Made by a program: the position numbers and the translations under genes. A stretch of 58,850 bases of DNA from a virus, in the IMG/VR virus record IMGVR_UViG_3300012347_000370, positions 1 through 58,850 of that record; one strand, 5' to 3'. Below, one piece after another: positions 56-58,777 of this stretch. The stretch's first letter is position 1. Every line of letters starts with the position of its first letter. Below the pieces are notes generated by a model, which saw only the letters and a list, made by a program, of their open reading frames with translations, did no database searches and was not told the origin of the DNA.

Positions 56-1275
56 TCGAGACGCGCAGCGCCCTGCTGTGGAAGGCGCCTGCCTTCACGC
101 ACATCCTGTTCTCCATGCTCAACCCCACCAAGGGCGAGCTGTCCGCCCTGTTCACCGACGCCGTGCCCATCGCCGCCACCGATGGTTCCAACCTCATCCT
201 CAACCCGGCCAAGTTCTTCGAGTTCTCCCTCGACGAGCGCGTGTTCATCGTGGCGCACGAGATCCTGCACTGCGTGCTCAACCACTGTGTGCTGGGCTAC
301 CCCATGCGCCGGTCGGGGCAGGTCAAGTACGCCGACGGCACGTCGATCCCCTACGACGCGCAGCTCATGAACGTGGCCATGGACCTGGTCATCAACGACA
401 CGCTGATCCACGACAAGATCGGCAAGTTCCCCACCTGTGGCGTGCACGACCCCAAGACGGCGACGCGCGACGACAACTTCATGGACGCCTACCGCAAGGT
501 CTGGAAGAAGAACGAGGAGAACGGCGGCGGCAAGGGTGACGGTACCTCGCAAGGTAACGGTCAGGGTGGCGGCTTCGACGTCATCCTCGATCCCGGCACG
601 GGTCAGGGTCAAGATCCTGGTCAGGCTGCTCAGGGTCGCTCGCAGACGGAGTGGGACACCGCTGTCGCTGCTGCTCTCGCCAGCGCCAAGGCGCAGGGCA
701 AGCTGTCGGCTGGTCTCGAGCGCCTGCTCAAGGAGATCGTCGAGCCCACGGTCGAGTGGCAGGATCACATCCGCTCGCTGTTCGCCCGCAAGATCGGTGG
801 CGGTGGCTACGACTGGCGCAAGCCCGACCGCGCACTCATCCTGCGCGACATCTACGCACCCCGCCGCTCCGGCAATGGTTGTGGCCCCATCGTGGTCGCC
901 ATCGACACGTCCGGCTCCATCGGCCAGCGCGAGCTGGATCAGTTCTTCGGCGAGATGAAGGGCATCCTTGACGACGTCCGGCCCGAGCTCATCCACGTCA
1001 TCTGGTGTGACGCAAAGGTGCACAAGGTGGACGAGGTCGAGGACAGCGCCGACATTTCCGCGCTCAAGCCCGCCGGTGGTGGCGGCACCGACTTCCGCCC
1101 CGTGTTCGACTACGTCGACGACAACGACATCCGGCCCGATGCGCTCGTGTATCTGACCGACATGCTCGGCTCGTTTCCCGACCAGTCGCCCGTCTATCCC
1201 GTCATCTGGGGCGACATCTACGGCCGCGTCACGCCGCCCTTCGGCGACGTCGTCGAGATCCCGATCCGCAAGTAA
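1..1275 (+). CDS. VWA-domain protein with N-terminal HExxH metallopeptidase-like domain (3' part; the gene starts at 58778 and crosses the junction)
   Basis: Frame 1 is open from nt 1 and in frame with ATG 58778 through the overlap. It has the motif VAHEILHCVLNH and a MIDAS-type DxSxS (VAIDTSGSIG). It lies beside the AAA ATPase at 57162..58259. Confidence 0.8.
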   Translation, partial: AKSGLAVATLTDAQRRKWIETRSALLWKAPAFTHILFSMLNPTKGELSALFTDAVPIAATDGSNLILNPAKFFEFSLDERVFIVAHEILHCVLNHCVLGYPMRRSGQVKYADGTSIPYDAQLMNVAMDLVINDTLIHDKIGKFPTCGVHDPKTATRDDNFMDAYRKVWKKNEENGGGKGDGTSQGNGQGGGFDVILDPGTGQGQDPGQAAQGRSQTEWDTAVAAALASAKAQGKLSAGLERLLKEIVEPTVEWQDHIRSLFARKIGGGGYDWRKPDRALILRDIYAPRRSGNGCGPIVVAIDTSGSIGQRELDQFFGEMKGILDDVRPELIHVIWCDAKVHKVDEVEDSADISALKPAGGGGTDFRPVFDYVDDNDIRPDALVYLTDMLGSFPDQSPVYPVIWGDIYGRVTPPFGDVVEIPIRK

Positions 1276-1324
1276 CCCTCCAAGGTAACGGGGCTGGGCC
1301 AATAACCCAGCCTCGCATCACACC

Positions 1325-1603
1325 ATGACAGATGACACATCGACCCTCGACATGCAGAGGGACAACGCCTTCGCAGACGCGCTGGTCGCCCTGTTCAAGG
1401 CGCATCCGATCCCCGAGTGGATGCACGAGATGCACCATGCGGTGCGCGGCTCCGCCCTCCGCAAAGCACGCAACGGGGGCTACCGGGACTATGCCGCTGG
1501 CGGGATGCTGCGCTGGCGCAAGCAGGTGGCCGAGAACGCTGAGCTCGACTGGAACGTGCCGCCCGAGCAGGTCGTCGCCATCCACGCGCTCATCTTCGGA
1601 TAA
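1325..1603 (+). CDS. Small protein, paralogous family member 1 (C-terminus ..VVAIHALIFG)
   Basis: ATG is preceded by ATCACACC. The C-terminal ALI[FY]G and the AFA(D/A)AL N-terminal block are shared with 2850, 3174, 56610 and 58302. The stop lies in TAACC. Confidence 0.75.
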   Translation: MTDDTSTLDMQRDNAFADALVALFKAHPIPEWMHEMHHAVRGSALRKARNGGYRDYAAGGMLRWRKQVAENAELDWNVPPEQVVAIHALIFG

Positions 1604-1620
1604 CCCAGAGAGGTAACACC

Positions 1621-1932
1621 ATGGCAGACACCGACGCGCGTGTCCCCGCTCTCCAACTCCTGCTTGCCGACGCCAGCGACGACACAAAGCGGGCGCTGAT
1701 CTACAAGGCGTTCCCCGACAGCTTCGTCATACTCAAGGGCGAGGCCGACAGGGTGGAGAAGTGGATGCGTGAGACACGCAGCTATCTCCAGACCATCTTC
1801 GACACGACCGACGGCCAGACCCCGCTCGGGATGCTGGCGGTGCAGCAGGTCCACCACAACGCTGACTGGGCCATCCGCGATCTGAGCAAATGCGCTCATG
1901 TGCTCGGCATCAAGATCGGCAACATGCCCTAA
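1621..1932 (+). CDS. Hypothetical protein (103 aa)
   Basis: GAGAGGTAACACC-ATG initiation region; the stop TAA lies in a TAACC junction motif. Confidence 0.7.
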   Translation: MADTDARVPALQLLLADASDDTKRALIYKAFPDSFVILKGEADRVEKWMRETRSYLQTIFDTTDGQTPLGMLAVQQVHHNADWAIRDLSKCAHVLGIKIGNMP

Positions 1933-1949
1933 CCCACAGAGGTAACACC

Positions 1950-2093
1950 ATGACAACCCCACCCTGCTCCACGCCGGAAGCCATCGCGCTCGGCTGCACC
2001 TGCCAGGTCTCCACCCACAACGGCAAGGGAGTGGTGTTCATCCCGCTGACCTGCCCTATCCACTCGCAATTCTACAAGTCCAAGGAAGAATGA
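1950..2093 (+). CDS. Small Cys-rich hypothetical protein (47 aa)
   Basis: ATG 1950 follows AGAGGTAACACC directly and is in frame with track ORF 1890..2093. Confidence 0.55.
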   Translation: MTTPPCSTPEAIALGCTCQVSTHNGKGVVFIPLTCPIHSQFYKSKEE

Positions 2094-2094
2094 C

Positions 2095-2849: not shown

Positions 2850-3158
2850 ATGGATGAGAAGCGCGCCGCCTTTGCCGCAGCGTTCGACGAGCTGTGCCTC
2901 CAGCACCCGCTCCCGCCGCTACCCTACCCCACCAACCGCAAGAAGCTGAAGCGCCTGAAGTGGCTCATGAAGAAGAGGATGAGCCGCGAGTACTATAGCC
3001 GCGCGCTGCGCGCTGAGACGCTGGTCACCGGACACGGCGGCAAGCAGTTCTTGCAATGGGAAATCAATATCCACGACATGAGGCGGAAAGAGATCGCCGG
3101 CGCGTGCAATCTGCCAACCGAGGCGCTGAACAGTGTCTACGCCTTGCTCTACGGATAA
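2850..3158 (+). CDS. Small protein, paralogous family member 2 (..VYALLYG)
   Basis: GAGGTAAGTC-ATG. It has the AAFAAAFDEL..HPLPP block and ALLYG end, followed by TAACCTTTGGAGGTAA. Confidence 0.75.
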   Translation: MDEKRAAFAAAFDELCLQHPLPPLPYPTNRKKLKRLKWLMKKRMSREYYSRALRAETLVTGHGGKQFLQWEINIHDMRRKEIAGACNLPTEALNSVYALLYG

Positions 3159-3173
3159 CCTTTGGAGGTAATC

Positions 3174-3410
3174 GTGACACCATCGGACCAAGACAAGCAC
3201 AAAGCCTTCGCTGCTGCGCTCGAAGGTCTGTACAAGATGTACCCCCTGCCCGATTACAAATACCCCAAGGTCATGTGGCAGCGTATCTACGACAGGGACA
3301 CGGCTATCCGCAACGCCCGCTCCGGCTGCCCCCTCTACATGATCGACGTCTTCGCGCACAAAGTCCCCCACGACAAGATCAAGGCGGTGCACGCCCTGAT
3401 CTATGGGTAA
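3174..3410 (+). CDS. Small protein, paralogous family member 3 (..VHALIYG)
   Basis: GTG 3174 lies 2 nt after GGAGGTAAT. It has the KAFAAALEGL..YPLP block and ALIYG end. The stop lies in GGTAACC. Confidence 0.7.
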   Translation: MTPSDQDKHKAFAAALEGLYKMYPLPDYKYPKVMWQRIYDRDTAIRNARSGCPLYMIDVFAHKVPHDKIKAVHALIYG

Positions 3411-3442
3411 CCGCTCAAGGTTACGTCCCCGTAACATAAGTA

Positions 3443-3521: not shown

Positions 3522-3854
3522 ATGAATGATTCTTGGACGGAAGCCGGACAGAAGTTCGATTCCGAGAAACCACCCGTCGACCTTCTGGATACTTACGCTC
3601 TCGAACAGACCGCGCTCGTGCTGGCGTTCGGTGCCCGCAAGTACGCCGCCCACAACTGGCGCGGCGGCATCCGCTTCTCCCGCCTGATCGGTGCTGCCAT
3701 GCGCCACCTGATGGCGATCAACCGTGGCGAGGACATCGACCCCGAGTCCGGCCTGCCTCACGCCGCCCACGCCGCCTGCTGCGTCATGTTCCTGCTGTGG
3801 ATGATGCACAACCGGCCCGACCTCGATGACCGTTGGAAGGGGCCGACCGAATGA
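3522..3854 (+). CDS. DUF5664-like protein (dATP/dGTP diphosphohydrolase N-terminal-type domain)
   Basis: KFDSEKPPVDLL..FGARKYAAHNWRGG..AAMRHL..GEDIDPESGLPHAAHAACC matches my memory of this phage family. Confidence 0.6.
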   Translation: MNDSWTEAGQKFDSEKPPVDLLDTYALEQTALVLAFGARKYAAHNWRGGIRFSRLIGAAMRHLMAINRGEDIDPESGLPHAAHAACCVMFLLWMMHNRPDLDDRWKGPTE

Positions 3855-4144: not shown

Positions 4145-4166
4145 CCCTTACCCACGGAGGTAACCC

Positions 4167-4916
4167 ATGGCCGTCTATTCCTATCGCATCATCAGCGACA
4201 TCGAGTTCAACATCCGGCAGGTCGCCGAGATGTTCTTCGCCCGCACCAAGCTGGTGCTCTCGCCCAGCGAGTTCATCGCCGCGTTCATCAACCCCGAGCA
4301 TGTCGAGAAGCTGCGCGACGTGCAGGAGCTCGTCGGCTTCGTCGGGCAGAACAGCATGGGCACCACGCTGGCGTCCACCACCGGCAGTCGATACGCCGCC
4401 GTCCTTACCTTCACGGGTAACGCCCCGATCATCATCCCGCAGTACGCAGGCATGGGCATCCAGCCCACCTGCCCCCCTGACGTCCTTGCCAAGATCGTTG
4501 GCTGGATCGACGAGCGCACACGATTCGGCGATGCGTTCGGCGACGTCACGGACGCTGTCTCCATGCTGAACGAGCAGTGCGGCGATGCGGCCGCCATGCG
4601 GGTCATGCTGCCCTGCCTACCGACCATCATGGCATCGTTGCACTCCAGCGACGACGACACCAATACCAAGCGCGCCAAGAAGGTGGCTCAGGCCAAGAAG
4701 TTCGGATCGCTGCCCCGCCTGCCGCAGTCGATCAAGCAGCGGCTCCTCGAAATCTCGGCCATCGTCAACTCGACCGCGCTGGTCAAGGACGCACCAGAGG
4801 TGACCGCCCCCGCGCAGCACGCAATCGTGACGGTCAACAGCCCGGCGCGAGGTGAGCCCGCCCGTCCGAGCCCGCTCTACGCTGGCGACGTCACCAAGGG
4901 CGCACGCTTCGTCTGA
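4167..4916 (+). CDS. Hypothetical protein (249 aa)
   Basis: TTACCCACGGAGGTAACCC-ATG initiation region; long sense ORF. Confidence 0.7.
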   Translation: MAVYSYRIISDIEFNIRQVAEMFFARTKLVLSPSEFIAAFINPEHVEKLRDVQELVGFVGQNSMGTTLASTTGSRYAAVLTFTGNAPIIIPQYAGMGIQPTCPPDVLAKIVGWIDERTRFGDAFGDVTDAVSMLNEQCGDAAAMRVMLPCLPTIMASLHSSDDDTNTKRAKKVAQAKKFGSLPRLPQSIKQRLLEISAIVNSTALVKDAPEVTAPAQHAIVTVNSPARGEPARPSPLYAGDVTKGARFV

Positions 4917-5122
4917 AAAAAGTGGCGCCGGCCCTCCACCACAGAGTCCGGCGCCGCTCGCCATAGCGAGAACCCCACGGAGGGTCGACACAGAATCTAG
5001 CGGTAACCGACCCCTGCGTCAACAATACCTAGAGAGGTAACCGTGCTGCCCGACATGCAGCCGTTCACCGGGCTTCATCTCGAGCACCACGCTCACAACA
5101 CCAACCCACGGAAGGAACTACC

Positions 5123-5560
5123 ATGTTTGGAAAACTCAAGGAGAAACTCACCGGCGGCGCGTCTCGTCTGAACGGCAAGACCGACCTGCTGGAAGGCATC
5201 TGCGCGGCCTGCGTTCTGGTCGGTGCTGCCGACGGCGACCTGTCTGACGACGAAGCGGCGGTGGCGCTGGACCGCCTCTTGAACCATGAGACGCTGTCCA
5301 AGGCGTTCTCCGGCACCCAGATCGAGACGGCCTTCGACAAGCAGGCCAAGCGCGCCAAGTCCGGCATGTCCGGGCGTCTGGGTCTGCGCCGCGAGGTCGA
5401 GGACGTGAAGGCCAAGTCCTCCGCCGAGGACTGCGAAATGCTGCTGGTCATCGCCATCGACGTGGCGGCGGCTGACGGCGACATCGGCGCCAAGGAGATG
5501 GGCGTCCTCCGCACCATCGGGCAGGCCATGGGCTTGGCCCCCGAGCGGTATCTCGCCTGA
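5123..5560 (+). CDS. TerB-like (tellurite-resistance TerB family) protein
   Basis: Two AADGD(L/I)-containing helical repeats (VGAADGDLSDDE.. and VAAADGDIGAKE..) are typical of the TerB fold. SD is GGAAGGA. Confidence 0.65.
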   Translation: MFGKLKEKLTGGASRLNGKTDLLEGICAACVLVGAADGDLSDDEAAVALDRLLNHETLSKAFSGTQIETAFDKQAKRAKSGMSGRLGLRREVEDVKAKSSAEDCEMLLVIAIDVAAADGDIGAKEMGVLRTIGQAMGLAPERYLA

Positions 5561-5740: not shown

Positions 5741-5764
5741 ATCCATAACCCCAGGAGGTAACCC

Positions 5765-6463
5765 ATGGCGATCAACTCGCTACCCAAGCGAGGCGACAGG
5801 ACGTCGAGCGCGTCGGCCGTCTGCGACATCTGCGACCACAGCGAAGTGGTTCGCGCCGACTACGAGAAGACCCACGCGGGCTTCAAGGTGAACGAGGGGC
5901 AGGTGGTGTTCCGCCTGACCCAGAACAATTGGTCATACATCAAGGGCGTGCTGCGCTGCCCCGAGTGCGAAGCAAAGCGCCGTGGCGACCAGCCCATCAA
6001 AAACAAGGAGGAACCCATCATGACCCAAGCGAACGACAACGTCGTGGCGATCACCCCCGCCGCCACCGAGGAACTGCGCCAGCCCTCGCGCGAGCAGAAG
6101 CGCCAGATCATCAGCCTGCTGACCGAGGTCTATGACACCAGCGCAGGGCGCTACACCGGCGGCGAGACCGACAAGACCGTGGCCGAGGCCATCGGCAACG
6201 GCGTGATGTTCGGCTGGGTCGCCCAGATCAGGGACGAACTGTTCGGTCCGGAGGGCGGCAACGAGGAGCTCGAGACTCTGGATGCCGACTTCAAAGAGTG
6301 GACCGAAGAAGCCGCCGCTGTCGCCAAGTCCTGCCACGACGACATCCAGAAGGCGCTTGCCTCGCTGCGCGACTACAACAAGCTGCGCGACAAGATCGGT
6401 GCGCTGTCCACCCGCATCGAGGCCCTGAAGACTGCCATCGGGCCGCGCGCCCGCAATGTGTAA
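5765..6463 (+). CDS. Hypothetical protein with N-terminal zinc-ribbon-like CxxC...CxxC
   Basis: GGAGGTAACCC-ATG; has CDICDH...CPECEAKRRG. Confidence 0.65.
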   Translation: MAINSLPKRGDRTSSASAVCDICDHSEVVRADYEKTHAGFKVNEGQVVFRLTQNNWSYIKGVLRCPECEAKRRGDQPIKNKEEPIMTQANDNVVAITPAATEELRQPSREQKRQIISLLTEVYDTSAGRYTGGETDKTVAEAIGNGVMFGWVAQIRDELFGPEGGNEELETLDADFKEWTEEAAAVAKSCHDDIQKALASLRDYNKLRDKIGALSTRIEALKTAIGPRARNV

Positions 6464-6482
6464 CCCTGCAAGGTAAGACCGA

Positions 6483-8962: not shown

Positions 8963-8988
8963 CCCCCCGAGAAATCGGGGGGCCTTTT
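8963..8988 (+). terminator. Rho-independent terminator
   Basis: CCCCCCGA-GAAA-TCGGGGGG followed by CCTTTT. Confidence 0.75.
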
Positions 8989-9003
8989 ACCCCGAGAGGT
9001 AAT

Positions 9004-12190: not shown

Positions 12191-12205
12191 CCCATGGAGG
12201 TAATT

Positions 12206-49800: not shown

Positions 49801-52635
49801 TCACGACCCGTTGCTGGCGATTACGATGTAGTTGGGAGTGCTTTTCAGCAATACGCTCCCGGGCTTCTCAGTCAAGATCTCAGCAGACGAAGCTCCGCCG
49901 CCAGAGAACTGAACGCTTCCAGCGCCACCGGACAGCAAGACCACCGGATACTCGCTCGAGCCGTCGAAGTCTGCTTGCGTCGCCCCGGACGAAAACACCA
50001 CGGTGCTCGAGGTGTCCTCGCCCAGGCGGACGATGCGCCCGAGGTTCAACTGCTGCGCCACTGCCGTGAGGCTGAACCCGACCTGGATCAGGGCCGCGCC
50101 GCGAGCTGCAAGCTGCGCGATGGCAGCGCCCTCGATGACCAGCTCCCCGGAGGCAGTCCCGCGCGCCACGCGCTTGGCGATGGCCGAGCCATCCAGCGGC
50201 AGCGAACCAGCGATGGTCCCGAGGTTCAGCACCGCGCCTTGGATAGTCGGCTCGACGACGAAGACGGCGGAGGCGTTACCTGTCAGGGTAACTGCGCCAG
50301 CGCCGGAGCTCGACACGGAGAAGATACCGGCCGCCGAGCCGCGAACGGTCTTGAAGGCCACCGCCGTACCTGCGAGCGGCAACGAACCGCTGGTGGTACC
50401 CGCAACGCGCGCCAGGGCGGTGGCGCTCTGCGAAAGCTCCAGAGTCGCGGTGAGCGAGCCCTGGGCGGGCACAATCGCGTCGCTCGCGCCGGTCAGCTCG
50501 AGGTCAAGGTCGACCTCGGCCGAGAGGGAGACAGCCCCGACGCCGCTTCCCTCGAAGGGCACGGTGACCGAGGAAGTGCCGAGCACGCGGGCAGCGGCAC
50601 TGGCAGCGCCAGCGAAGGACATCTCGCCGCTGACCGAAGCAAGGTTGCGCACGCCCCCGGTGAATACGAGCTCGAACTCAACAGCGTCGTCCACCGACCC
50701 GGTGACGAGCACCACACCCTCGGCCAGCCCCGCAAAGGCGACCTGAGCGTCAACCGAGGCGAAGATGAAGGGGAGACCAGTGACGGTGCCCTCGGCCAAG
50801 CCCGTGAGCTCGACAGTGCCGCTGGCTTGGACGATGGTGCCCAGGTTCTCGGTGACCGTGCCTTCAGCAGAGCCGGCAAAGCCAACGGTGCCCTCGGCAG
50901 AGCCGGTGCTGACCGACTGGACGATACCCTCCGCAGAGCCGCTGACGTCGACCGAGCCGTCCGCAGAGCCTCCGATGCCCGTCAGGACCACATAGCGCAG
51001 GATGACGATGCCGTCGCCGCCACGGCCCGACTGGAAGGTGGTGGAGGCCGACCCGACGCCGCCCGAACCGCCGCCCGAGTTGGGAGCGGCGCTCAGCGTG
51101 CTTGCGCCGTAGCGACCTGCTGAGCCGCCACCCGAAGCCGCGCCATTGGTCGTCGAGCTCCCGCCCGCACCGCCACCGCCACCGCCGAACGGGATGGGGT
51201 AGTCGTAGATGGCGTAGGAGGCCGCGACACCGCCGTCGCCGCCCTTCGAGCCTGTGCCCGAGGTGCCGTTTCCGCCAGCGCCCCCAGAGCCACCGCCACC
51301 GCCAGCATATCCGGTGGTGCCGTTACCGTTGCCGCCGCCGTTGCCCTGCCCCGAAGTGCCTGCGGCCCCCGCATTGGTCGTCGAACCACCGCCACCGCCA
51401 CCGCCGGAGCCACCGCTCACTGGGGCAGTGTTGTGCGCACCGCCATAGCCGCCGCGCGTGGCCGTCAGCCCGTTGAACGTGGTGCTGGTACCGAGGTTGC
51501 CCCTGGCAGTGCCCGTGCCCGTCGTCGATGCGCCGCCGACACCGATGACGATGGGGTATGACCCTGCGTCGAGAGTGATCGGGCTGCCGATGTTGTTGAG
51601 CACACCGCCCGCACCGCCACCGCCACCGCCGCCAGCGTTGATGCTTCGGCCGCCGGACGCGCCGCCGCCGACAAGGACGTATTCGACGTTGGAGATGCTG
51701 CTCTCGGCCGTGAACGTCCCGTCGGAGACGAACACATGGTAGCGATAGGGCGTCCCGCCGATGGTCTCGTCGAAGGTCGTGTTGGCCGTCGGGATGAACG
51801 ACGCCGGATAGCGGACGAGAACGATACCGTCACCGCCCTTGCCGGAGATCGTGCTCCCGCCACCAGCAGCAGCATAGGTGCTGGCCACAGCACCGCCGCC
51901 CCCACCAAGACCGTTCGTGCCGGGGTTGCCGGCACCGCCCATCTTACCTGCGCCGCCGCCACCAGAGCCACCAGTGCCTACGTTACTCCCGCTGCCGGTT
52001 GCACCACCACCACCGCCATACGTCGTAGACGTCCCAGAAATCGTCGATGCGACGCCAGCGCCGCCATTTCGCACGGAAGCAGCCGCAGAAGCACCGCCGC
52101 CGCCACCGCCCGAGTGGGAGATGCTCGAGGAGTAGGAGCCAGCGGCACCGTTGGTGCCCTGCCCCGAAGTGCCCGTCCCGGCGACACGGTTGGCAGCAGT
52201 GCTGGAGCCCCCGCCGCCACCGCCCGAGCCACCATTTCGTCCGGGTGCGCCTGGACTGCCGCCACCGCCACCGCCGACTGCGGTCAGTCCTGCAAAGGTG
52301 GAGTTCCCGCCGTTGTTCCCCTGCCCTGTCGCTCCAGCACCGCCGACGCCGATGGTGACCGGGTACGAGCCGGCGGTCAGCGTGAGCGGAGATGCAGAAG
52401 TGTTCCAGAGGGCACCGCCAGCGCCGCCGCCGCCAGCACTGCCCGAGGGGCCGGATGTGCCCGAGTTCACCCCGGTGCTGCGCCCACCCGAGCCGCCACC
52501 TGCAACCAGCAGGTATTCGATGTCGGCGCCGCCTTCGGTGACTGTGAGGGTGTCGTCAGCCGTGAACGTATGGAGCCGCCAGAGTTTTCCGGCGTCCCAG
52601 ATGTAGCTGATCGAACCCCCGGTCGCCTTCGTCAT
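49801..52635 (-). CDS. Glycine-rich fibre/receptor-binding-type protein (944 aa) with internal duplication
   Basis: Two copies of a module ([WY]R.H.F...(D/G)T(L/F)T.....(I/V)EY(L/V)LV(A/G)GG(G/A)SGGRS...GGGGGAGG..L.AGSYP(V/I).IGVGG). Confidence 0.7.
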   Translation of the reverse strand: MTKATGGSISYIWDAGKLWRLHTFTADDTLTVTEGGADIEYLLVAGGGSGGRSTGVNSGTSGPSGSAGGGGAGGALWNTSASPLTLTAGSYPVTIGVGGAGATGQGNNGGNSTFAGLTAVGGGGGGSPGAPGRNGGSGGGGGGSSTAANRVAGTGTSGQGTNGAAGSYSSSISHSGGGGGGASAAASVRNGGAGVASTISGTSTTYGGGGGATGSGSNVGTGGSGGGGAGKMGGAGNPGTNGLGGGGGAVASTYAAAGGGSTISGKGGDGIVLVRYPASFIPTANTTFDETIGGTPYRYHVFVSDGTFTAESSISNVEYVLVGGGASGGRSINAGGGGGGGAGGVLNNIGSPITLDAGSYPIVIGVGGASTTGTGTARGNLGTSTTFNGLTATRGGYGGAHNTAPVSGGSGGGGGGGSTTNAGAAGTSGQGNGGGNGNGTTGYAGGGGGSGGAGGNGTSGTGSKGGDGGVAASYAIYDYPIPFGGGGGGAGGSSTTNGAASGGGSAGRYGASTLSAAPNSGGGSGGVGSASTTFQSGRGGDGIVILRYVVLTGIGGSADGSVDVSGSAEGIVQSVSTGSAEGTVGFAGSAEGTVTENLGTIVQASGTVELTGLAEGTVTGLPFIFASVDAQVAFAGLAEGVVLVTGSVDDAVEFELVFTGGVRNLASVSGEMSFAGAASAAARVLGTSSVTVPFEGSGVGAVSLSAEVDLDLELTGASDAIVPAQGSLTATLELSQSATALARVAGTTSGSLPLAGTAVAFKTVRGSAAGIFSVSSSGAGAVTLTGNASAVFVVEPTIQGAVLNLGTIAGSLPLDGSAIAKRVARGTASGELVIEGAAIAQLAARGAALIQVGFSLTAVAQQLNLGRIVRLGEDTSSTVVFSSGATQADFDGSSEYPVVLLSGGAGSVQFSGGGASSAEILTEKPGSVLLKSTPNYIVIASNGS

Positions 52636-53250: not shown

Positions 53251-53930
53251 CGTCAGATCCTCTGCTGTGCGCGAGGTCAGGCTTCGTTACCTCGCCAGGT
53301 AATCGTTGACCCGTATAGCAGATGAGCTGAAGTGAAACAAGGTTGCTTTCAAGTAATCGTTTTATGGTGTGATGGTTACATTTTGTATTTTGAGGTTCTG
53401 CGTGTTTGCAAGGTACCTAAAAAAGGCACCCCCCGCCCCGGCCCCCCCTGTCCAGATGGGGGTGGGGGTACCCCGTGAGGTAATGCCGCCGTTACTAGGG
53501 TGTAACCAGTGAATGATCAGACAGTAACCGCCCACACTAGGGCAGGACAGCGAACCTTCCCCGCTGATCATAATGGGATAGGCGATGGTGGACTGATGGT
53601 CTGCTTGGGGTCTGGCGCACCTACTTACCTGCAAAGGTAACGGTAGCCTAGGGCAAGGATAAACGGTGTCGCCACCGCCTTGCGGATCGCATGGTCGCCC
53701 CGCCGGGGCCGCGCATGACGCGGATAATATCAAACGACAGCCCGCGCGCATACCAGTCTAAGCGCGACCGGATAACGGTGAGTGAACGGGGTTTGGCAGC
53801 CCCTAGTAAAAGCCGCGACACGTCACCCTGACAAGGTGACTTCCCATCAAGACATTCAGCGGCGGCGGCGGCGGGCAAAGGACAAAGGTTAAGGTGGAGC
53901 AAACCTAGACACTCCACCGATATCTTTCAC

Positions 53931-53955
53931 GGTAACACCATCGCACGGTGTTACC
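53931..53955. promoter_or_regulatory. 9-bp-arm palindrome GGTAACACC-ATCGCAC-GGTGTTACC
   Basis: Perfect inverted repeat. Its core, CACCATCGCACGGTGTT, recurs exactly at 54418..54434. Confidence 0.6.
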
Positions 53956-53982
53956 TTGCAAGGTATCACGAAAGGATGCGTC

Positions 53983-54234
53983 ATGGCTCAACGCTGGATG
54001 CAAGCGAAGATGATCACCGCCCGCAAGAACGGTATCACCATCTCGGGATGTAATCGTGCGATGGGCGGCGTGATGGATGATCGCCCGCTCGGCCCGACAA
54101 AAGAGGCGACGTTGTTCAAGCCCATCGCCAAGCGCAAGGACGCGCCGATGGTTGTGCGGCTCGCACCGTCCGACCGTCCCAAGGCATGGGGCGCCACGAA
54201 GAAGGCCCGCCGCGCCGCTAACCCGCGCAGGTAA
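53983..54234 (+). CDS. Small basic protein (83 aa)
   Basis: SD is AAGGA. ATG 53983 is in frame with track ORF 53956..54234. The stop lies inside GGTAAC. Confidence 0.55.
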   Translation: MAQRWMQAKMITARKNGITISGCNRAMGGVMDDRPLGPTKEATLFKPIAKRKDAPMVVRLAPSDRPKAWGATKKARRAANPRR

Positions 54235-54338
54235 CGTGTGTGATGGTGCGACCGTTCAACCTGTAGATGACGGTCGAACAATGTGAGAACATCGGCAGGG
54301 AGAGACGCCAGCGGGCTGTTCCTCTCTATCTATATCAA

Positions 54339-54358
54339 TAATCTTTAATCTTTAATCT
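54339..54358. repeat. AT-rich heptamer repeat (TAATCTT x ~3)
   Basis: TAATCTTTAATCTTTAATCT. A 14-bp inverted copy lies at 54460..54473. Confidence 0.8.
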
Positions 54359-54417: not shown

Positions 54418-54434
54418 CACCATCGCACGGTGTT
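54418..54434. repeat. Second copy of the 17-bp element CACCATCGCACGGTGTT
   Basis: Exact match to 53936..53952. Confidence 0.85.
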
Positions 54435-54459
54435 CGCCGAAACAGCCCTAGACGTTTTG

Positions 54460-54473
54460 AAGATTAAAGATTA
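54460..54473. repeat. Inverted copy (AAGATTAAAGATTA) of the TAATCTT repeat
   Basis: Reverse complement of 54339..54352. Confidence 0.8.
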
Positions 54474-54546
54474 TCGAGAAATCGTGTAATATCAAAGGGT
54501 TACGCGATCTCGACCTGCGTTAATCTGCAAACTGTGAAAATTTCAT

Positions 54547-54620: not shown

Positions 54621-54842
54621 ATGCCCAAATCGACCCCCAAAACGGCCAATGAACTGGCCACCTCGCTTGCCGCGCTGCTTGCCGAACGCGCCGTCTTGAA
54701 GGCCCGTCAACGCACCATCGCGATCAAGATCAAGCGCATTCGTGCCGCGCTTGACCGCCACCCATCGGTGACCATCGCACAACCGATGGACTCCACCCCC
54801 GATCCGTTCGCTGACTTGGATAGCATCCTCGGCGACGAGTAA
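54621..54842 (+). CDS. First early-arm protein (73 aa, helical, basic N-terminus)
   Basis: SD is GGGGAAAG. The stop TAA lies in TAACCCGCGCAGGTAACG. Confidence 0.6.
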   Translation: MPKSTPKTANELATSLAALLAERAVLKARQRTIAIKIKRIRAALDRHPSVTIAQPMDSTPDPFADLDSILGDE

Positions 54843-54907
54843 CCCGCGCAGGTAACGCGCTCTCATCAACGCCCCCACCACGGGCACCCCACGGAAGGAA
54901 CCCCACT

Positions 54908-55645
54908 ATGAACATGATCCTGAACATGACCACCGCCGCCTCGAACGCATCCTCGCTTGGCGACAACTCGGCCGGCCGCCTCGACAAGGTGAAGCAGAAG
55001 CTCGGCGTCCTCGGCAAGCAGGAGGCTGCCGGTCTGTCCTCGCGCCGCGACGCCGGCATCGCTCTCGCCGCCTATGCCTACGATGGTGACATCGACGAGG
55101 GTGACGCGGAGACCTGCTACGACACCTACATTACCTCGCTGGGTAAGAACGCCGCCGCCCGCCATGTGGCGACCGACACGTCGAACGGTCGCAAGGCGAA
55201 CGTGTCCAAGTTCCGCCAGTTCATCAAGATGGGCGCCCTGCCGCAGGTCGACGGCCGCGAGGTGCTGGCGCGTGCCGTGTCGCTGACCGAGCAAGTTGCC
55301 GCCGCAGGTAACAAGGTCAAATCCCCCTTCGACGCCCTGCTGGATGTGTGCCGCTCGCAGGCCGATCAGCCCGACGTGCCGCTGACCGACGAGCAGATTG
55401 TCGCTGCCGTGTCCAAGCCCGAGCCCAAGCAGAAGGACGAGATGGAAAAGCTGGTCGCTGCCTACAAGGCCGCGCACAAGCTGGCCGAGACCATCCCCTC
55501 CGCCCACACGCTGGCGGCTGTCGATGCCTATCGCGACGCCATCGTCGAGGCTGGTGGCGACGTGCCCGCCATGACCAAGGAAGAGAAAGAGCAGGCTGCC
55601 TTCATGGCCAAGGCCGCCAAGCTGGGCTTCGTGGTCGCCAAGTAA
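54908..55645 (+). CDS. Hypothetical protein (245 aa)
   Basis: SD is GGAAGGAA; long sense ORF. Confidence 0.65.
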   Translation: MNMILNMTTAASNASSLGDNSAGRLDKVKQKLGVLGKQEAAGLSSRRDAGIALAAYAYDGDIDEGDAETCYDTYITSLGKNAAARHVATDTSNGRKANVSKFRQFIKMGALPQVDGREVLARAVSLTEQVAAAGNKVKSPFDALLDVCRSQADQPDVPLTDEQIVAAVSKPEPKQKDEMEKLVAAYKAAHKLAETIPSAHTLAAVDAYRDAIVEAGGDVPAMTKEEKEQAAFMAKAAKLGFVVAK

Positions 55646-55717
55646 CCTCGAACGGTAACACCATCACACCATCTGGCGCCGGCGCCGTCACTGACCCAAA
55701 CGACGCCGGACTAGATA

Positions 55718-55791: not shown

Positions 55792-55917
55792 AGCGTCGAG
55801 GCGCGCTCTCATCAAGCACGCCACCATCAGGAGGTGACATGACCTTATTAGACCCGGGCTGGCATCCCGCGACAACTGCCGCCCACCCCATCCCTGTAAC
55901 CCGAGGAGGTAACCCCC

Positions 55918-56160
55918 ATGGCGAATCGCAACCACCCCAACATCGAGGCATCGGCGTTCCGCACTGGCGAGTATGTCGGATACGACGGCCGTGGCCACGT
56001 CTGGCATGTGAAGAAGATCCGCGACAAGGAATGGGTCGCGGCCCCCGCGCCGAACAATCCCGCACGCACGCTGGCGACACGCATCCGCGACACCACGCTG
56101 ACCGCCATCGCCTCGCGCCTGGCCGAGCGCTGCGCCCCCGCTGTCGTCGAACCGTTCTAA
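55918..56160 (+). CDS. Hypothetical protein (80 aa)
   Basis: GGAGGTAACCCCC-ATG; the stop lies in TAACC. Confidence 0.65.
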   Translation: MANRNHPNIEASAFRTGEYVGYDGRGHVWHVKKIRDKEWVAAPAPNNPARTLATRIRDTTLTAIASRLAERCAPAVVEPF

Positions 56161-56177
56161 CCCCGAGAGGTAACACC

Positions 56178-56288
56178 ATGATCTACCGCCTGCGCCTCCG
56201 CTGGCGCCTGCTCTTCGCCGACCGCCACGAGGCACGCCTGCTGAACCGTGCGCTGCGCGACGAGACCCGCCGCTTCTGCCGCCGCTAA
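56178..56288 (+). CDS. Arg-rich micro-protein (36 aa)
   Basis: GAGAGGTAACACC-ATG. My translation is MIYRLRLRWRLLFADRHEARLLNRALRDETRRFCRR. The stop lies in TAACC. Confidence 0.45.
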   Translation: MIYRLRLRWRLLFADRHEARLLNRALRDETRRFCRR

Positions 56289-56305
56289 CCCCGAGAGGTA
56301 ACACC

Positions 56306-56527
56306 ATGACAACCCCGCGCTACGACACGCACTGGGAGGTGAGCGGGTATCACCCCGACAAGAAGGAGCCGTTCGACCTCTACATCAACTTCTTCCCCAC
56401 CGAGGCGCGTGCCCTCGAGGTGAAGGAGGATCTCATCCGGCAGGGCTACGAGCACATCAACATCGTGCCCCCGCGCAACCCCAACCCCGGACCGCCCATC
56501 ACGCTGTCCTCCTACCTCAAGAGGTAA
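56306..56527 (+). CDS. Hypothetical protein (73 aa)
   Basis: Initiation region identical to that of 56178. The stop lies inside GGTAACC. Confidence 0.65.
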   Translation: MTTPRYDTHWEVSGYHPDKKEPFDLYINFFPTEARALEVKEDLIRQGYEHINIVPPRNPNPGPPITLSSYLKR

Positions 56528-56529
56528 CC

Positions 56530-56613
56530 ATGCCCATCATCCGCATCCGTGACGTGCTCGGCGTCATCCTGCTGTTCGGCCTGCTGGTCGTCGGTCTGTG
56601 GATCACACCATGA
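56530..56613 (+). CDS. Hydrophobic micro-peptide (27 aa)
   Basis: AGAGGTAACC-ATG. My translation is MPIIRIRDVLGVILLFGLLVVGLWITP. ATGA overlap with the next gene. Confidence 0.4.
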   Translation: MPIIRIRDVLGVILLFGLLVVGLWITP

Positions 56614-56858
56614 CAGACCCGCTGCCTCCCGAGGTGGCGGCGAAGCTCGATGCGTGGATCAACTCCATCCGTGGGCTCGCCCGCCAGCATGGCGTCGCGC
56701 ATCGTCCCGCCATCGGCCGCGCGGTCAAAGACCTGCGCCTGGCCAACAGTAAGCCCGTCATCCTCGAGGTCGTTGTGCGCTCATCCGTCGAGTCGTGCGC
56801 CGAGGCTGGCATCCCCAAGGACGAGCTCATCTCTGTCCGCACGCTGATCTTCGGGTAA
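56610..56858 (+). CDS. Small protein, paralogous family member 4 (..VRTLIFG)
   Basis: ATCACACC-ATG start context as at 1325 and 58302; LIFG end followed by TAACC. Confidence 0.7.
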   Translation: MTDPLPPEVAAKLDAWINSIRGLARQHGVAHRPAIGRAVKDLRLANSKPVILEVVVRSSVESCAEAGIPKDELISVRTLIFG

Positions 56859-56861
56859 CCC

Positions 56862-57104
56862 ATGGAGGTAACGCCGCACGAACAGTTCGCCACGCTGCTG
56901 GCGCTCGTTCTGCCCGACCCGACGCCGCACCGCATGGATATCAGCGAAAACATCACACCGGGAGTGCTCGACCTCGCGCGGCGTGGCGCCTATGCCAAAC
57001 TCGGCGACGGCGTCGAGCCCTACGTCTTCCAAGCACCCGAATACTGGCTGCACCTGCGGCCAGCGATCCTCGAACTCTGGCGAGCCTGTTACCTCGCCAA
57101 GTAA
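56862..57104 (+). CDS. Hypothetical protein (80 aa; start uncertain)
   Basis: The ATG lies inside the junction motif GTAACCCATGGAGGTAAC, and no start codon follows the SD closely. Confidence 0.5.
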   Translation: MEVTPHEQFATLLALVLPDPTPHRMDISENITPGVLDLARRGAYAKLGDGVEPYVFQAPEYWLHLRPAILELWRACYLAK

Positions 57105-57161
57105 CCGCCCCCACCACGGGCATCACGCGCACTCATCAGCGCATCATCCACGGAGTGTCCT

Positions 57162-58259
57162 ATGAACCTCACCACCTTCGCCCGCCTCGCGCCGTCCTAC
57201 TACCTCTCCGGCCTCGGCGACCCCGACAACCGCGCCTGCGTGTACCTGCGCTCCGGCCCGGGCATGGGCAAGACGACCACCATCAAGTCGGTCGTCCCGC
57301 AGATCGCGTCCAAGCTGGGCAAGCGCCTCGGCTTCGTGCTCATCAACGGCCCGCTGCTCACGCCCTCCGACGCCGTGGGCTATCTCGTCCCGCAGAAGCA
57401 GCCCGACGGCCGCATCGAGTCCAAGTACACCGAGCCCTTCTGGTGGCGTACCTCGGAAGGTAACCGCCTCGAGGAGTATGACGGCGGCATCATCTTCGTC
57501 GACGAGGCCGACAAGACCGACGTGGACGTCAAGAAGGTGCTCGGCGAGATGGCGCTGTCCGGTCGCTGCGGCCCGCACGTCCTGCCCGACGGCTGGGTCG
57601 TGTGGATGGCCGGCAACCGGCAGGGTGACCGCTCGGGCTCGACCAAAGAGCTCGACCACCTCATCAACCGTCGCATCGAGATCGACATCACCCCCGACCT
57701 CGCGTCGTGGGAGACCTGGGCGCTCAAGCACGGCGTGCACCACACCATCGTGCACTTCGCCGCCAGCAACCCGCAGATCGTGTTCCCCGAAGGCGTGCCC
57801 GACAAGCAGGGTCCGTTCTGCACCCCGCGCTCGCTGGTCAACCTCGGCCGTGTGCTGGTTACCCTCGGCGGTAACACCGGTGACATCCCGACCGACACCG
57901 ACGCTGTCGAGACGGCTGCCGGCATGATCGGTCAGGCTGCGGCCGCACAGTTGTTCGCCTCCATCCGGCTCGACGCTGAGCTGCCCAAGCTGGAGACGAT
58001 CCTCGGCAACCCGTCCGCTGCCAAGCTGCCCTCGGCGCCCGACGCGCAGATGCTCACCTGCTACAAGCTGGCCGCGCTCGCCACGCAGCAGACGCTCGAC
58101 CCCATCGTCACCTATGTCCAGCGTTTGCCCGCCGACTTCTCCATCACCTTCGCCAAGTCGCTGGTCACCCGCGTGCCGATGTTCGCTGCCTCGCCTGCGA
58201 TCCTCAACTGGTCCAAGACCAACAGCGCCATCATGGCGACGATGGCCCTGCTCAAGTAA
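57162..58259 (+). CDS. AAA+ ATPase (MoxR-like)
   Basis: Walker A is GPGMGKTT and Walker B is IIFVDEADK. It is paired with the downstream VWA protein. Confidence 0.85.
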   Translation: MNLTTFARLAPSYYLSGLGDPDNRACVYLRSGPGMGKTTTIKSVVPQIASKLGKRLGFVLINGPLLTPSDAVGYLVPQKQPDGRIESKYTEPFWWRTSEGNRLEEYDGGIIFVDEADKTDVDVKKVLGEMALSGRCGPHVLPDGWVVWMAGNRQGDRSGSTKELDHLINRRIEIDITPDLASWETWALKHGVHHTIVHFAASNPQIVFPEGVPDKQGPFCTPRSLVNLGRVLVTLGGNTGDIPTDTDAVETAAGMIGQAAAAQLFASIRLDAELPKLETILGNPSAAKLPSAPDAQMLTCYKLAALATQQTLDPIVTYVQRLPADFSITFAKSLVTRVPMFAASPAILNWSKTNSAIMATMALLK

Positions 58260-58301
58260 CCGCAGCGGGTAACGGTGGGCCTCACGGCCCACCATCACAC
58301 C

Positions 58302-58514
58302 ATGGCAAGCATCGAGAAGAACGAAGCGTTCGCCGCTGCACTCGAGGCACTGGCGATCCCTTCCTACGAGAACCCTTATATCTACAAGGCGTGGATCAAG
58401 AAAGCCAAGTCCGGATTCTATGCCTCCGGTAGCGAGCGCCCTGCCTTCCTTGGCTCATACTTCCGCATGACTGAACAAGAGTGGGACGCCCTGTGGGCGC
58501 TCATCTACGGCTAA
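58302..58514 (+). CDS. Small protein, paralogous family member 5 (..LWALIYG)
   Basis: ATCACACC-ATG; NEAFAAALEAL block; ALIYG end, then TAACCTTTGGAGGTAA as after 3158. Confidence 0.7.
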   Translation: MASIEKNEAFAAALEALAIPSYENPYIYKAWIKKAKSGFYASGSERPAFLGSYFRMTEQEWDALWALIYG

Positions 58515-58528
58515 CCTTTGGAGGTAAC

Positions 58529-58756
58529 ATGCCGCTCAACACCTACATCATCGAGCTCAAGCTCGACGCCCCCGACGAGAACCACGAGGCGATGAACCAG
58601 ATCGTCAAGCAGTATGCCCGGGACATGCTGTCGTCGGCCATGTTGCTGTCCCCCGGCAAGCAGCCGCAGGTCATCGCTCGCAGCGAGGACTGCTTCTACG
58701 ACCAGACCGAGATCGAGGTGCTCGACCCGAGCGACAACGTGCACGAGCCCAACTGA
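58529..58756 (+). CDS. Hypothetical protein (75 aa)
   Basis: GGAGGTAAC-ATG; in frame with track ORF 58481..58756. Confidence 0.65.
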   Translation: MPLNTYIIELKLDAPDENHEAMNQIVKQYARDMLSSAMLLSPGKQPQVIARSEDCFYDQTEIEVLDPSDNVHEPN

Positions 58757-58777
58757 CCCTTACCCACGGAGGTAACC

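Follow-up and report, generated by a model that had tools for sequence, protein, structure and literature searches.

A dispersed GTTACC-N5/6-GGTAAC element in an SU10-portal podovirus-type phage genome, selected at the DNA level and re-tuned between relatives

A genome-wide bipartite element

The viral DNA analyzed here (IMG/VR record IMGVR_UViG_3300012347_000370; the whole 58,850-bp stretch, with a G + C content of 63.9%, is called the window) is a tailed-phage genome that carries the bipartite element GTTACC-N5/6-GGTAAC at 82 distinct places. The copies are specific to the phage, are under selection as DNA and have been rewritten together in related lineages, and they are probably duplex-DNA sites read by a dimeric protein that the phage itself would encode.

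With mismatches counted over the 12 specified bases, 18, 33, and 32 sites showed zero, one, and two mismatches, respectively. An earlier note on this DNA, made by eye from the letters, had estimated 75–80 copies, and this estimate was borne out; its 18 perfect palindromes were all recovered exactly where it had placed them, and its lists of near-perfect and junction copies were essentially right, except that several coordinates deviated by 1 and that the copy given at 23448 lies at 23438. The spacer was N6 in 70 sites and N5 in 13, and spacers of N3, N4, and N7–N9 occurred at background level only. In 200 dinucleotide-preserving shuffles, the mean numbers of sites with zero, one, and two mismatches were 0.0, 0.07, and 1.2; the 83 sites observed versus approximately 1.2 correspond to an enrichment of approximately 70-fold, confined to the N6 and N5 spacers. 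Shuffling synonymous codons within genes removed most of the intragenic sites, and the excess over composition that the earlier note had reckoned with withstood both comparisons.

The half-site words GTTACC and GGTAAC were found 99 times in the window, 84 times paired and 15 times as orphans, the latter against approximately 22 expected from base composition. That the words are mostly paired, with orphans at or below background, suggests cooperative reading of the two halves. The extended consensus is GTTACC-T-y-n-n-r-A-GGTAAC, i.e., a 7-N4-7 palindrome (GTTACCT-N4-AGGTAAC) accompanied by a minor 7-N3-7 class, and none of the flanking bases was conserved so as to mark a start position.

The sites cover the chromosome at a mean density of approximately 1.4/kb and are spaced more evenly than random (coefficient of variation, 0.67–0.78 vs. 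0.97; P 0.001–0.02). The early and replication genes lie on the + strand from approximately 54.2 kb via the window end to 18.35 kb, and the late genes lie on the − strand from approximately 45.4 to 18.36 kb. Site density is 2.05/kb in the early arm versus 0.88/kb in the late arm, a 2.3-fold difference. A control region holds five sites in approximately 0.7 kb together with a conserved non-coding element rich in half-sites.

Coding cost, gene junctions, and control DNA

Forty-five of the 82 sites (55%) are intragenic, 26 lie at gene junctions, and 11 are otherwise intergenic; given that coding sequence makes up 90% of the genome, this amounts to an approximately fourfold enrichment of sites in junction and non-coding DNA. 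Thirty-eight of the 45 intragenic sites are in frame 0, read as xTT-ACC-nnn-nnn-GGT-AAx, a bias that arises because frame 2 holds TAA and frame 1 requires TTA and GTA. This is the frame that the earlier note had named, and the peptides VTLNGN, VTPVGN, VTLGGN (twice), VTRGGK, and FTHGGK listed in it are present. The peptide [VLIF]TxxG[NK] occurred 22 times versus 2.1 expected from amino-acid composition (approximately 10-fold over), and 20 of the 22 copies were spelled xTT-ACC..GGT-AAx, although the window favors G or C at third codon positions and GTT and GGT account for only 9.9% of Val codons and 19% of Gly codons, respectively. The peptide excess and the rare-codon spelling therefore demonstrate that unrelated proteins are bent to carry a nucleotide word and that selection acts on DNA, as had been suspected from the sequence alone.

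The junction copies, previously described as a separate direct form, are real, but they are the same element with a T3→A change, by which the left half becomes G-TAA-CC and supplies the upstream stop codon. At junction sites, the end of the spacer and GGT together make GAGGT 6–9 nt ahead of the next ATG. A stop codon lies inside 21 sites, and 12 sites end no more than 12 nt from a called start. Orientation is confined to these one-base variants because TAA is a stop codon. The layout of stop codon and Shine-Dalgarno (SD) sequence at junctions was also seen in relatives.

A conserved non-coding element at 53368–53517 contains many half-sites (GGTTAC, GGTACC, GGTACC..GGTAAT, GTTAC, and two of GTAACC). 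It retains 75–83% nucleotide identity in nine relatives and has a terminator-like hairpin on the − strand (53439–53423); it could be the primary binding or control region, a small RNA gene, or part of an origin. In an AT-rich stretch (53927–53942, 54339–54358, 54420–54435, and 54461–54474), aatctttaatctttaatct is repeated in tandem and agattaaagatta is its inverted counterpart; two copies of accatcgcacggtgtt border the stretch, which resembles an origin or regulatory region; sites lie on the flanks of the repeat region at 54.3–54.5 kb. Degenerate copies of the element at 8393, 10319, and 54562, each with at least three mismatches, fall on the −35 or the spacer of a promoter-like sequence.

Conservation, turnover, and re-tuning among relatives

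When the phage collection was searched at the nucleotide level, no close relative turned up, and GenBank contains no near-identical phage. Among cultured phages, the nearest is Rhizobium phage RHph_TM27A, whose portal was 63% identical in a protein search; the window phage is an SU10-portal podovirus-type relative of it. The 60.9-kb genome of RHph_TM27A carries 18, 37, and 9 sites with zero, one, and two mismatches, respectively, at a density like that of the window. In 100 kb of Rhizobium etli replicons (p42e/p42f), 15 half-site words and no site with zero or one mismatch were detected. Most of the uncultured relatives (dozens, recovered via the portal, the polymerase, the early protein 54908–55645, or the word itself) carry the word as well, and they span 47–64% G + C. 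As the word stays constant while G + C, and presumably the host, varies, the reader is more likely to be encoded by the phage than by the host.

The positions of the sites turn over at a density that is kept throughout. Sixteen orthologous gene pairs of the window and RHph_TM27A hold 29 and 20 sites, respectively, and share no alignment column. Shared positions amount to approximately 85% at approximately 88% protein identity, 40–55% at 60–65%, and 0–20% at approximately 50%.

Close relatives with 62–80% portal identity carry variant words that keep the register and are similarly dense: GTTACT-N6-AGTAAC in L006 and L148, GGTACC-N6-GGTA(A/C)C in L017, ATTACC-N6-GGTAAK in L007 and L018, and the direct-repeat form GTAACY-N6-RGTAAC in L011. 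Conversion in place could be followed at individual sites. At 42322–42339, perfect in the window and encoding VTPEGN, the same codons hold GTTACT..AGTAAC in L006 and GTAACT..AGTAAC in L011 (window, GTTACCccggaaGGTAAC; L006, GTTACTtcggaaAGTAAC; L011, GTAACTcagccgAGTAAC). The perfect portal-gene site at 44720–44737 (VTWEGN) was likewise converted in both relatives (window, GTTACCtgggaaGGTAAC; L006, GTTACTtgggaaAGTAAC; L011, GTAACTtgggcgGGTAAC), as was the N5 site at 45965–45981 (one mismatch). Several replication-gene sites have C6→T in L148 and retain C in L176; both states were seen for the PolA site at 7380–7397 (one mismatch, frame 0, LTWPGN). The L148 change falls in the same codon at 10727–10744 (perfect, N6, SNF2 helicase frame 0, VTLNGN) and at 57858–57875 (perfect, VTLGGN), and the L148 equivalent of 11261–11277 (one mismatch, N5, SNF2 gene) is GTTACT..AGTAAC. 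The change G13→A replaces Gly by Ser, and such non-synonymous changes were found in portal and scaffold proteins. Such concerted change of tens of sites is the signature of a trans-acting reader with altered specificity.

Distant relatives, with polymerases 36–43% identical, use other palindromes: TTACCG-N3-CGGTAA in L157–L160, TTACGG-N3-CCGTAA in L155, ATTAGC-N3-GCTAAT in L189, and TTCACACG..CGTGTGAA in L175. The palindrome of L163, CCTAACA-N2-TGTTAGG, has 17 copies in a locus of 21.8 kb, and all of them fall within its initial 10.6 kb, a stretch of small early-type genes. The palindromes of distant relatives often stand directly upstream of the SD sequence. Since L155, L157–L160, L163, L164, L168, L175, and L189 each have a dense palindrome of their own, the phenomenon is clade-wide.

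As a separate observation, two unrelated viral contigs of 35–37% G + C contain local clusters of exact GTTACCT-N4-AGGTAAC: L056 (10040–10153) has three 18-mers within approximately 100 bp, and L067 has four perfect ones. The clusters may serve as operators for a regulator that is unrelated but shares the specificity.

Duplex site or hairpin

The pattern of variation favors pairs of duplex-DNA half-sites, read by a putative dimer, over hairpins. Inside single genomes, the two members of a pair vary independently, and compensatory covariation is absent. For instance, the partner of C7 is A12 in 20 window sites but G12 in just four, and position 3/16 is A·A in 20 of 57 window sites and in five of six L011 sites; the L011 word would thus place an A·A mismatch in any hairpin. 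The covariation seen in pooled data is due to differences between lineages, and the preference for T6/G13 (U·G) over C6/A13 in the sense orientation arises because ACC→ACT is synonymous and GGT→AGT is not. The symmetric shift of C6/G13 to T6/A13 in L006 is equally compatible with pairing and with a symmetric dimer. Sites are also present where the two arms converge and in the control DNA, which is non-coding, and the half-site centers are 10–12 bp apart, approximately one helical turn. Hairpin models survive at lower probability, given the tolerance of N5 and N6 and the center of only 2–4 nt in every lineage's palindrome.

Some readings of the word itself were rejected. A BstEII target (GGTNACC) did not fit, as the window shows no enrichment of the G at position 0 and the C at position 19 that it would require; for a restriction target, enrichment instead of avoidance would be atypical. 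Complementarity of the left arm (AGGUAAC) to 16S rRNA was also set aside, because a 7-mer has approximately a 1 in 5 chance of matching a 1.5-kb rRNA and the motifs of other lineages do not fit. GTWAC is quasi-palindromic in itself. L202 does not stand out by an unconstrained W at the center, as a broader site list gave a W3/W16 mix like that of other early regions.

Possible functions and candidate readers

A phage-encoded protein would bind as a dimer to two GGTAAC-type half-sites whose starts are 13 bp apart (12 bp in the N5 class), and selection would maintain approximately 1.4 sites/kb across the chromosome. Sites are cheap to place at junctions, with the left half giving the TAA stop and the right half forming part of the SD sequence; where there is no junction to use, they lie within genes, which have to accept rare codons and a fixed V/L/I-T-x-x-G-N/K peptide. 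The reader protein and its approximately 80 sites would shift specificity jointly between lineages. By analogy with the Cluster A stoperators, the sites may form a distributed operator or roadblock set through which one regulator acts on transcription genome-wide, a use that we consider the likeliest of those discussed, though short of probable. Such a regulator would silence or time transcription by the host RNA polymerase, both in the prophage and at the lytic early-to-late switch.

Several observations count for a regulator. Motif diversification between related phages resembles the repressor/stoperator pattern (PMC6550527). The tyrosine integrase gene (48184–49221) and the Xis-like HTH_17 gene (47909–48109) beside the terminase indicate that the window phage is temperate, and Int/Xis are also encoded by many relatives. 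The denser early arm, the early-only pattern of L163, the cluster in the control region, and the promoter overlaps were counted on the same side.

Other observations weigh against it. The RHph_TM27A lineage, in whose genome no integrase or other recombinase was found, keeps lineage-specific sites, and the function is therefore not prophage silencing alone. As the sites are palindromic, they would give no orientation-specific block to transcription of the stoperator kind. A regulator has no obvious need of even spacing or of 45 costly intragenic sites, features that better match a spacing-dependent use such as replisome loading, priming, or self-marking, and tolerance of both N5 and N6 spacers is unusual for a rigid dimer. 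The promoter predictions are weak: the number of promoter-like matches was not above that in shuffles, and of the promoters that the earlier note had credited with a copy, a consensus scan recovered only the one at 3443.

The screening of candidate proteins, moreover, yielded no binding protein and no repressor candidate, and no RNA polymerase, ParB, or CI-like repressor domain was detected in any protein scanned with Pfam and PHROGs. The OmpR-type winged helix-turn-helix protein at 8624–8938 (+ strand), suggested by the earlier note as the binder, found no support: its homologues were detected in the GTTACC-type lineage alone, and its putative recognition helix is nearly unchanged in the variant L148 but not the same in the window and in RHph_TM27A, which share the motif. 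The early protein at 54908–55645 (+ strand), a fast-evolving orphan, is a weak candidate linked to site specificity. It is encoded by the first conserved early gene in all relatives (identity, 28–45%), and in the variant lineage L006 it is the strongest outlier for changes at otherwise invariant columns (10 of 22, compared to no more than 9% for most other proteins). Its model is confident (predicted local distance difference test [pLDDT], 86) and all-helical; the fold had no PDB structural match and no DNA-binding match, its matches among viral models were to uncharacterized proteins only, and its profile had no sequence match in PDB. Contact of G13 by the Arg of its S-K-x-R-Q motif was rejected, since homologues that have N, K, or A at those positions still have canonical sites. 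A comparison of gene-cluster presence and absence between motif-bearing and motif-free PolA loci was confounded by phylogeny and discarded.

An unlikely but serious rival is that the AEP primase-DUF927 helicase (14047–16899, + strand), a candidate reader, recognizes the sites with a putative winged helix at its C-terminus, the DNA being duplex or forming a hairpin stem that presents one half-site. The sites would then direct replisome loading or a lagging-strand primer start approximately every 1 kb, on phage DNA only. Specificity of Rep proteins and iterons co-evolves in plasmids and SaPIs, and co-evolution of an initiator with its sites would account for the lineage variants. The AEP motifs DxD and SGGGFH are conserved in this protein, and the helicase part that follows them has relatives in the SCCmec Cch and SaPI helicases. 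For the 65 residues at the C-terminus, a helix-helix-beta-hairpin was modeled at low confidence (pLDDT, 63), with Cch helicase and the HSF and RepE winged helices as the best Foldseek matches, all non-significant (E ≥ 0.14). The last 70 residues of the window protein are 77% identical to those of L176, which has the same motif, versus 64% for the variant L148, and the remainder of the protein is equally distant from both; against this, the C-terminal domain is 31–39% identical in RHph_TM27A and L121, both with the same motif. Even spacing on the scale of Okazaki fragments, retention of sites in the apparently lytic RHph_TM27A lineage, and the AT-rich repeats between sites at 54.3–54.5 kb agree with such a role, but the 2.3-fold early-arm excess, the restriction of L163 sites to the early small-gene region, and the lack of a conserved flanking base marking a start do not, and we know of no primase that requires an 18-bp word. 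The earlier note had proposed hairpins for priming or RNA processing; the early-arm excess, the lack of pairing covariation, and the A·A mismatch, with the direct-repeat sites of L011, disfavor the hairpin, and duplex recognition by the primase-helicase is what stands of that proposal as a live rival.

Marking of self DNA for some other transaction, by a small terminase in packaging, by a system that spares it from nucleases or exclusion, or by a ParB/KorB/Noc-type compaction or partition protein, is quite unlikely. The sites are absent from host-like DNA, evenly spread, and replaced at kept density, their specificity diverges between close relatives as expected with co-infecting competitors, and the function is retained in an apparently lytic lineage; nucleases (RecB-like, VRR-NUC, EndoVII-like, and HNH) are encoded nearby. 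However, the proteins scanned contained neither a ParB-like domain nor another candidate domain, variant lineages show no excess of changes in the small terminase homologue, and the early-arm density excess is left unexplained. In a broader form that we regard as somewhat unlikely, this alphaproteobacterial podophage clade would carry a fast-evolving self bar code, each lineage with its own 14–18-bp palindrome approximately every kb and with all copies rewritten together when the reader changes, even where portal and scaffold proteins have to accept amino-acid replacements; the code would restrict replication, packaging, or nuclease protection to self DNA and would not serve repression. Action at the RNA level, as a 7-bp mRNA hairpin with a 3–4-nt loop that pairs stop codon and SD sequence at junctions for translational coupling, or that a phage RNA-binding protein binds or cuts in the manner of T4 RegA and RegB, is improbable. 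It would suit the 26 junction sites with GAGGT 6–9 nt before ATG and TAA in the left half, the layout shared by relatives, and the perfect short palindromes directly upstream of the SD in distant lineages, and the start-associated sequences of Cluster K are a precedent for repeats at translation starts (PMC3203893). It does not suit the 45 intragenic sites, where ribosomes would melt the hairpin, the A·A mismatch in the stem of junction copies, the lack of compensatory change within genomes, or the sites in non-coding control DNA and between convergent genes, and its apparent U·G preference reflects the synonymous ACC→ACT versus the non-synonymous GGT→AGT. Decoy sites, by which replicating phage DNA would titrate a host DNA-binding regulator or defense factor, are highly improbable: the palindrome has the architecture of a bacterial operator and no phage-encoded reader was found, but the word is kept across phages of 47–64% G + C with presumably different hosts, close relatives of similar G + C differ in variant, and 100 kb of host (R. 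etli) DNA lacks a copy. An artefact of composition or codon usage, a REP-like host background, or duplicated gene cassettes alone can hardly be credited. Five paralogous small early genes ending in ...ALI[FY]G-TAA do resemble one another in junction sequence, so a handful of copies comes from duplication, but 83 sites stand against approximately 1.2 in shuffles and none in R. etli DNA, 45 lie in unrelated genes with rare codons, and the motif is family-wide at differing positions.

Positions of individual sites

The sites were located by motif scan, combined for some with a peptide scan or with inspection of the start context; those described above are not repeated. Between 541 and 18366, perfect sites lie at 9693–9709 (N5, RecB-like exonuclease gene), 13916–13933 (SSB-like gene, frame 0, VTPVGN), and 17001–17018 (VTLGGN in 16896–17228). 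Sites with one mismatch were found at 541–558 (GGTACC-N6-GGTAAC, intragenic, frame 0), 1272–1289 (GTAACC-N6-GGTAAC, the left half holding the TAA stop of 115–1275), 4147–4164 (junction, CTTACC-N6-GGTAAC-cc-ATG), 4404–4421 (intragenic, frame 0, LTFTGN), 9462–9479, 13292–13309 (SSB-like gene, frame 0, VTEAGK), 14740–14756 (N5, primase-helicase gene), and 18128–18145 (VTRGGK in 17975–18352). Junction sites with two mismatches are 1600–1617 (ATAACC-N6-GGTAAC-acc-ATG), 1929–1946 (CTAACC-N6-GGTAAC-acc-ATG), 2262–2279 (GTAACC-N6-GGTAAG), 2830–2847 (CTTACC-N6-GGTAAG-tc-ATG), 5745–5762 (ATAACC-N6-GGTAAC-cc-ATG), 6460–6477 (GTAACC-N6-GGTAAG, ahead of the PolA start), 8986–9003 (TTTACC-N6-GGTAAT-ATG, at the dCMP deaminase start), 12187–12204 (GTAACC-N6-GGTAAT), and 12628–12645 (ATAACC-N6-GGTAAC-c-ATG). 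The other sites with two mismatches in this part are 3407–3424 (GTAACC-N6-GGTTAC, 18 nt upstream of the promoter-like TTGACC at 3443), 5024–5041 (intergenic, AATACC-N6-GGTAAC), 6649–6666 (in PolA, weak), 8034–8051 (PolA frame 0, FTHGGK), 11828–11845 (SNF2 gene), 15360–15377 and the weak 16167–16184 (both in the primase-helicase gene), 17809–17826, and 18349–18366 (GTAACC-N6-GGTTAC, between the convergent arms).

From 19006 to 50292, perfect sites are located at 19006–19022 (N5), at 20395–20412 (frame 0, VTQVGN), 21371–21387 (N5), 24266–24282 (N5), and 24706–24723 (frame 0, VTPSGN) in the giant virion protein gene, and at 26379–26396 (VTGEGN), 27352–27368 (N5), 28137–28154 (VTSGGN), 35966–35983 (intergenic), 48466–48483 (integrase gene, VTYRGN), and 50275–50292 (Gly-rich fiber gene, VTLTGN). 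One mismatch was counted at 23438–23455 (giant gene), 29313–29330 (VTSEGK, − strand gene 28983–29504), 31087–31104 (1429-aa gene), 31493–31509 (N5), 32360–32376 (N5), 32890–32907 (LTLAGN), 34628–34645, 39595–39612, 40344–40361 (− strand junction ahead of the 39989–40342 start), and 47892–47908 (GTAACC-N5-GGTAAC including the TerL stop codon). A second − strand junction at 37061–37078 reads GTAACC-N6-GGTAAC-acc-ATG ahead of 36905–37057. Two mismatches were counted at 19879–19895 (N5) and 22510–22527, both in the giant gene, at 34538–34555 (weak), and at 49422–49439 (intergenic).

In the control region, sites lie at 53286–53303 (one mismatch), 53467–53484 (two, within the conserved non-coding element), 53624–53641 (one), 53919–53936 (two), and 53950–53967 (one, 31 bp from the 53919 site and upstream of 53983–54223). 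Beyond it, GTAACC-N6-GGTAAC junctions with one mismatch occur at 54839–54856, 55642–55659, 55896–55913 (followed by cccc-ATG), 56855–56872, and 58256–58273, and CTTACC-N6-GGTAAC-c-ATG at 58759–58776 also has one. Two mismatches characterize the junction-type CTAACC-N6-GGTAAC at 54218–54235, the junctions CTAACC-N6-GGTAAC-acc-ATG at 56157–56174 and 56285–56302, a junction at 56511–56528, and CTAACC-N6-GGTAAC-ATG at 58511–58528. The remaining sites are 55130–55147 (two mismatches, ITSLGK), 55295–55312 (one), 57088–57105 (one), and 57447–57464 (two, MoxR-like ATPase gene).

Two observations concern genes that bear or adjoin sites. The paralogous family of five small early genes (1325–1603, 2850–3158, 3162–3410, 56598–56858, and 58275–58514) encodes products ending in ...ALI[FY]G, and the TAA that follows sits within a junction site. 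The gene at 17975–18352, which itself carries the VTRGGK site, encodes a small protein that contains two NUMOD1-like HTH repeats and weakly matches a MerR-like phrog; its homologue was seen in L149 only.

Features of the phage genome

The early arm encodes a DUF2201/VWA protein, a MoxR-like ATPase, a family A DNA polymerase, dCMP deaminase, a RecB-like exonuclease, VRR-NUC, an SNF2 helicase, a T7 gp2.5-like single-stranded DNA-binding protein (SSB) with an acidic tail, and the AEP primase-DUF927 helicase fusion. Late-arm products are an SU10-type portal, a capsid protein, a 2,374-aa virion protein, and EndoVII-like and HNH nucleases; the genes for the small and large terminase are on the + strand. 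Rfam and tRNA scans of the window gave no matches, and its GC skew tracks the direction of transcription with no independent origin signal. No prophage was found in the bacterial genome contigs scanned with the portal. In the GenBank record of RHph_TM27A (MN988461; L025/L026), the primase-helicase is annotated as a putative integrase, and 14-bp attL/attR features are marked.

Four genes (12647–12880, 5123–5560, 3522–3854, and 9004–9453) encode an Acb2/Tad1-type hairpin domain (anti-CBASS/Thoeris sponge family), a TerB-domain protein, a MazZ-like dATP/dGTP diphosphohydrolase N-domain, and dCMP deaminase. No PurZ-like gene was seen in the window, and a modified base is therefore not indicated. 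The structural module encodes three small proteins that are very basic and rich in Lys, Ala, and Pro (36041–37057, − strand), possibly internal proteins or DNA-binding proteins that are packaged; the conservation of one of them is 100% in L123 and 81% in L011. A 91-aa HNH protein (18363–18638, − strand), encoded where the late arm ends, is 59–71% identical even where the polymerase of relatives is 40% identical, and an endonuclease VII-like gene adjoins it (18631–19131, − strand).

Comparison with known systems

Literature searches for the word and for RHph_TM27A returned no description of the element. Dispersed short phage repeats are known mainly from actinobacteriophages, with an established function for the Cluster A stoperators only. 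The present case is unusually clean and dense, and its relatives form a natural series, some with the word re-tuned in place and others with a new word, that makes the question of the reader and its purpose directly testable. If the sites serve a regulator, stoperator-like whole-genome control would extend to temperate phages of Gram-negative bacteria; if they serve the replisome or self-recognition, they would represent a new principle of phage genome organization. In practice, the sites constrain recoding and synthetic redesign and provide a sequence signature for finding the clade in metagenomes.

For the iterons or single-strand initiation signals that primase-helicases and plasmid initiators read (P4 alpha, SaPI Rep, and RSF1010 RepB'), the specificity domain of a replication protein co-evolves with its sites, which lie at the origin only in known cases. 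A helicase of the same broad family is encoded here, but the approximately 80 sites are genome-wide. The OB sites of RK2 KorB, the operators of P1 C1, and the conserved inverted repeats of phiC31 illustrate one regulator that governs many operons from 12–20 dispersed intergenic sites. Far more sites are present here, and no ParB-, C1-, or phiC31-type repressor was detected in the window.

The start-associated sequences (SAS) and extended SAS (ESAS) of Cluster K are repeats that contain the ribosome-binding site 3–7 bp before the start codon, sometimes with a stop inside, and are absent from the host; SAS are asymmetric, in one orientation, limited to the non-structural half, and never inside genes (PMC3203893). 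They resemble the junction subset TAACC-N6-GGTAAC-N1-5-ATG, but not the 45 intragenic sites; the sites here are palindromic and lie in both arms, and the junction form is a one-base variant of the genome-wide palindrome.

The Cluster A stoperators of the temperate phages L5 and Bxb1 are 20–30 or more dispersed repressor sites, mostly off promoters and in short intergenic gaps, whose motif varies with the repressor between lineages and defines immunity groups; each is an asymmetric 13-bp site that follows the direction of transcription, and the repressor that binds it is a monomer with two domains (PMC6550527; PMC9283540). Likewise, one short site is dispersed here in many copies (82) with few promoter-like sequences, and its motif varies between lineages (L006/L148, L011, L017, and L007/L018). 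Unlike stoperators, the sites are dyad-symmetric (18 perfectly so), mostly intragenic, and approximately three times more numerous. Of the hypotheses in the earlier note, the stoperator-like set fits best in outline; it finds agreement in phage specificity, dispersal, junction bias, the control-region cluster, and lineage differences, but not in symmetry, lack of orientation, and persistence without an integrase.

That note also knew of no described system with this architecture, which is too strong a statement, as the genome of Cluster O mycobacteriophages carries the 17-bp palindrome TGTTCGG-N3-CCGAACA in more than 30 copies, approximately one-third inside genes, denser in the non-structural part, many at junctions, and mostly off promoters (PMC4351075). 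These phages are not obviously temperate, and the authors predicted a dimeric DNA-binding protein and left the function open (PMC4351075). Of the systems described, these palindromes resemble the present element most closely. Both have two approximately 7-bp inverted arms around a short center (GTTACCT-N4-AGGTAAC here, with a minor N3 class) and more than 30 intergenic and intragenic copies (here 51 with up to one mismatch and 82 with up to two, of which 45 are intragenic), and the non-temperate appearance matches the RHph_TM27A lineage. The Cluster O sequence TGTTCGGNNNCCGAACA and homology to those phages were not found, and host phylum and virion type differ, so the relation is one of analogy and not of membership. 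The window differs further in a density approximately three times higher (82 sites in 58.9 kb), a 55% intragenic share, the bending of proteins, and two spacers, and its relatives show lineage variants, in-place conversion, and replacement of the whole motif, which are unreported for Cluster O. What is new relative to the known systems is thus a denser and more intragenic set of sites, the co-conversion of sites in place, and the replacement of the motif across a clade.

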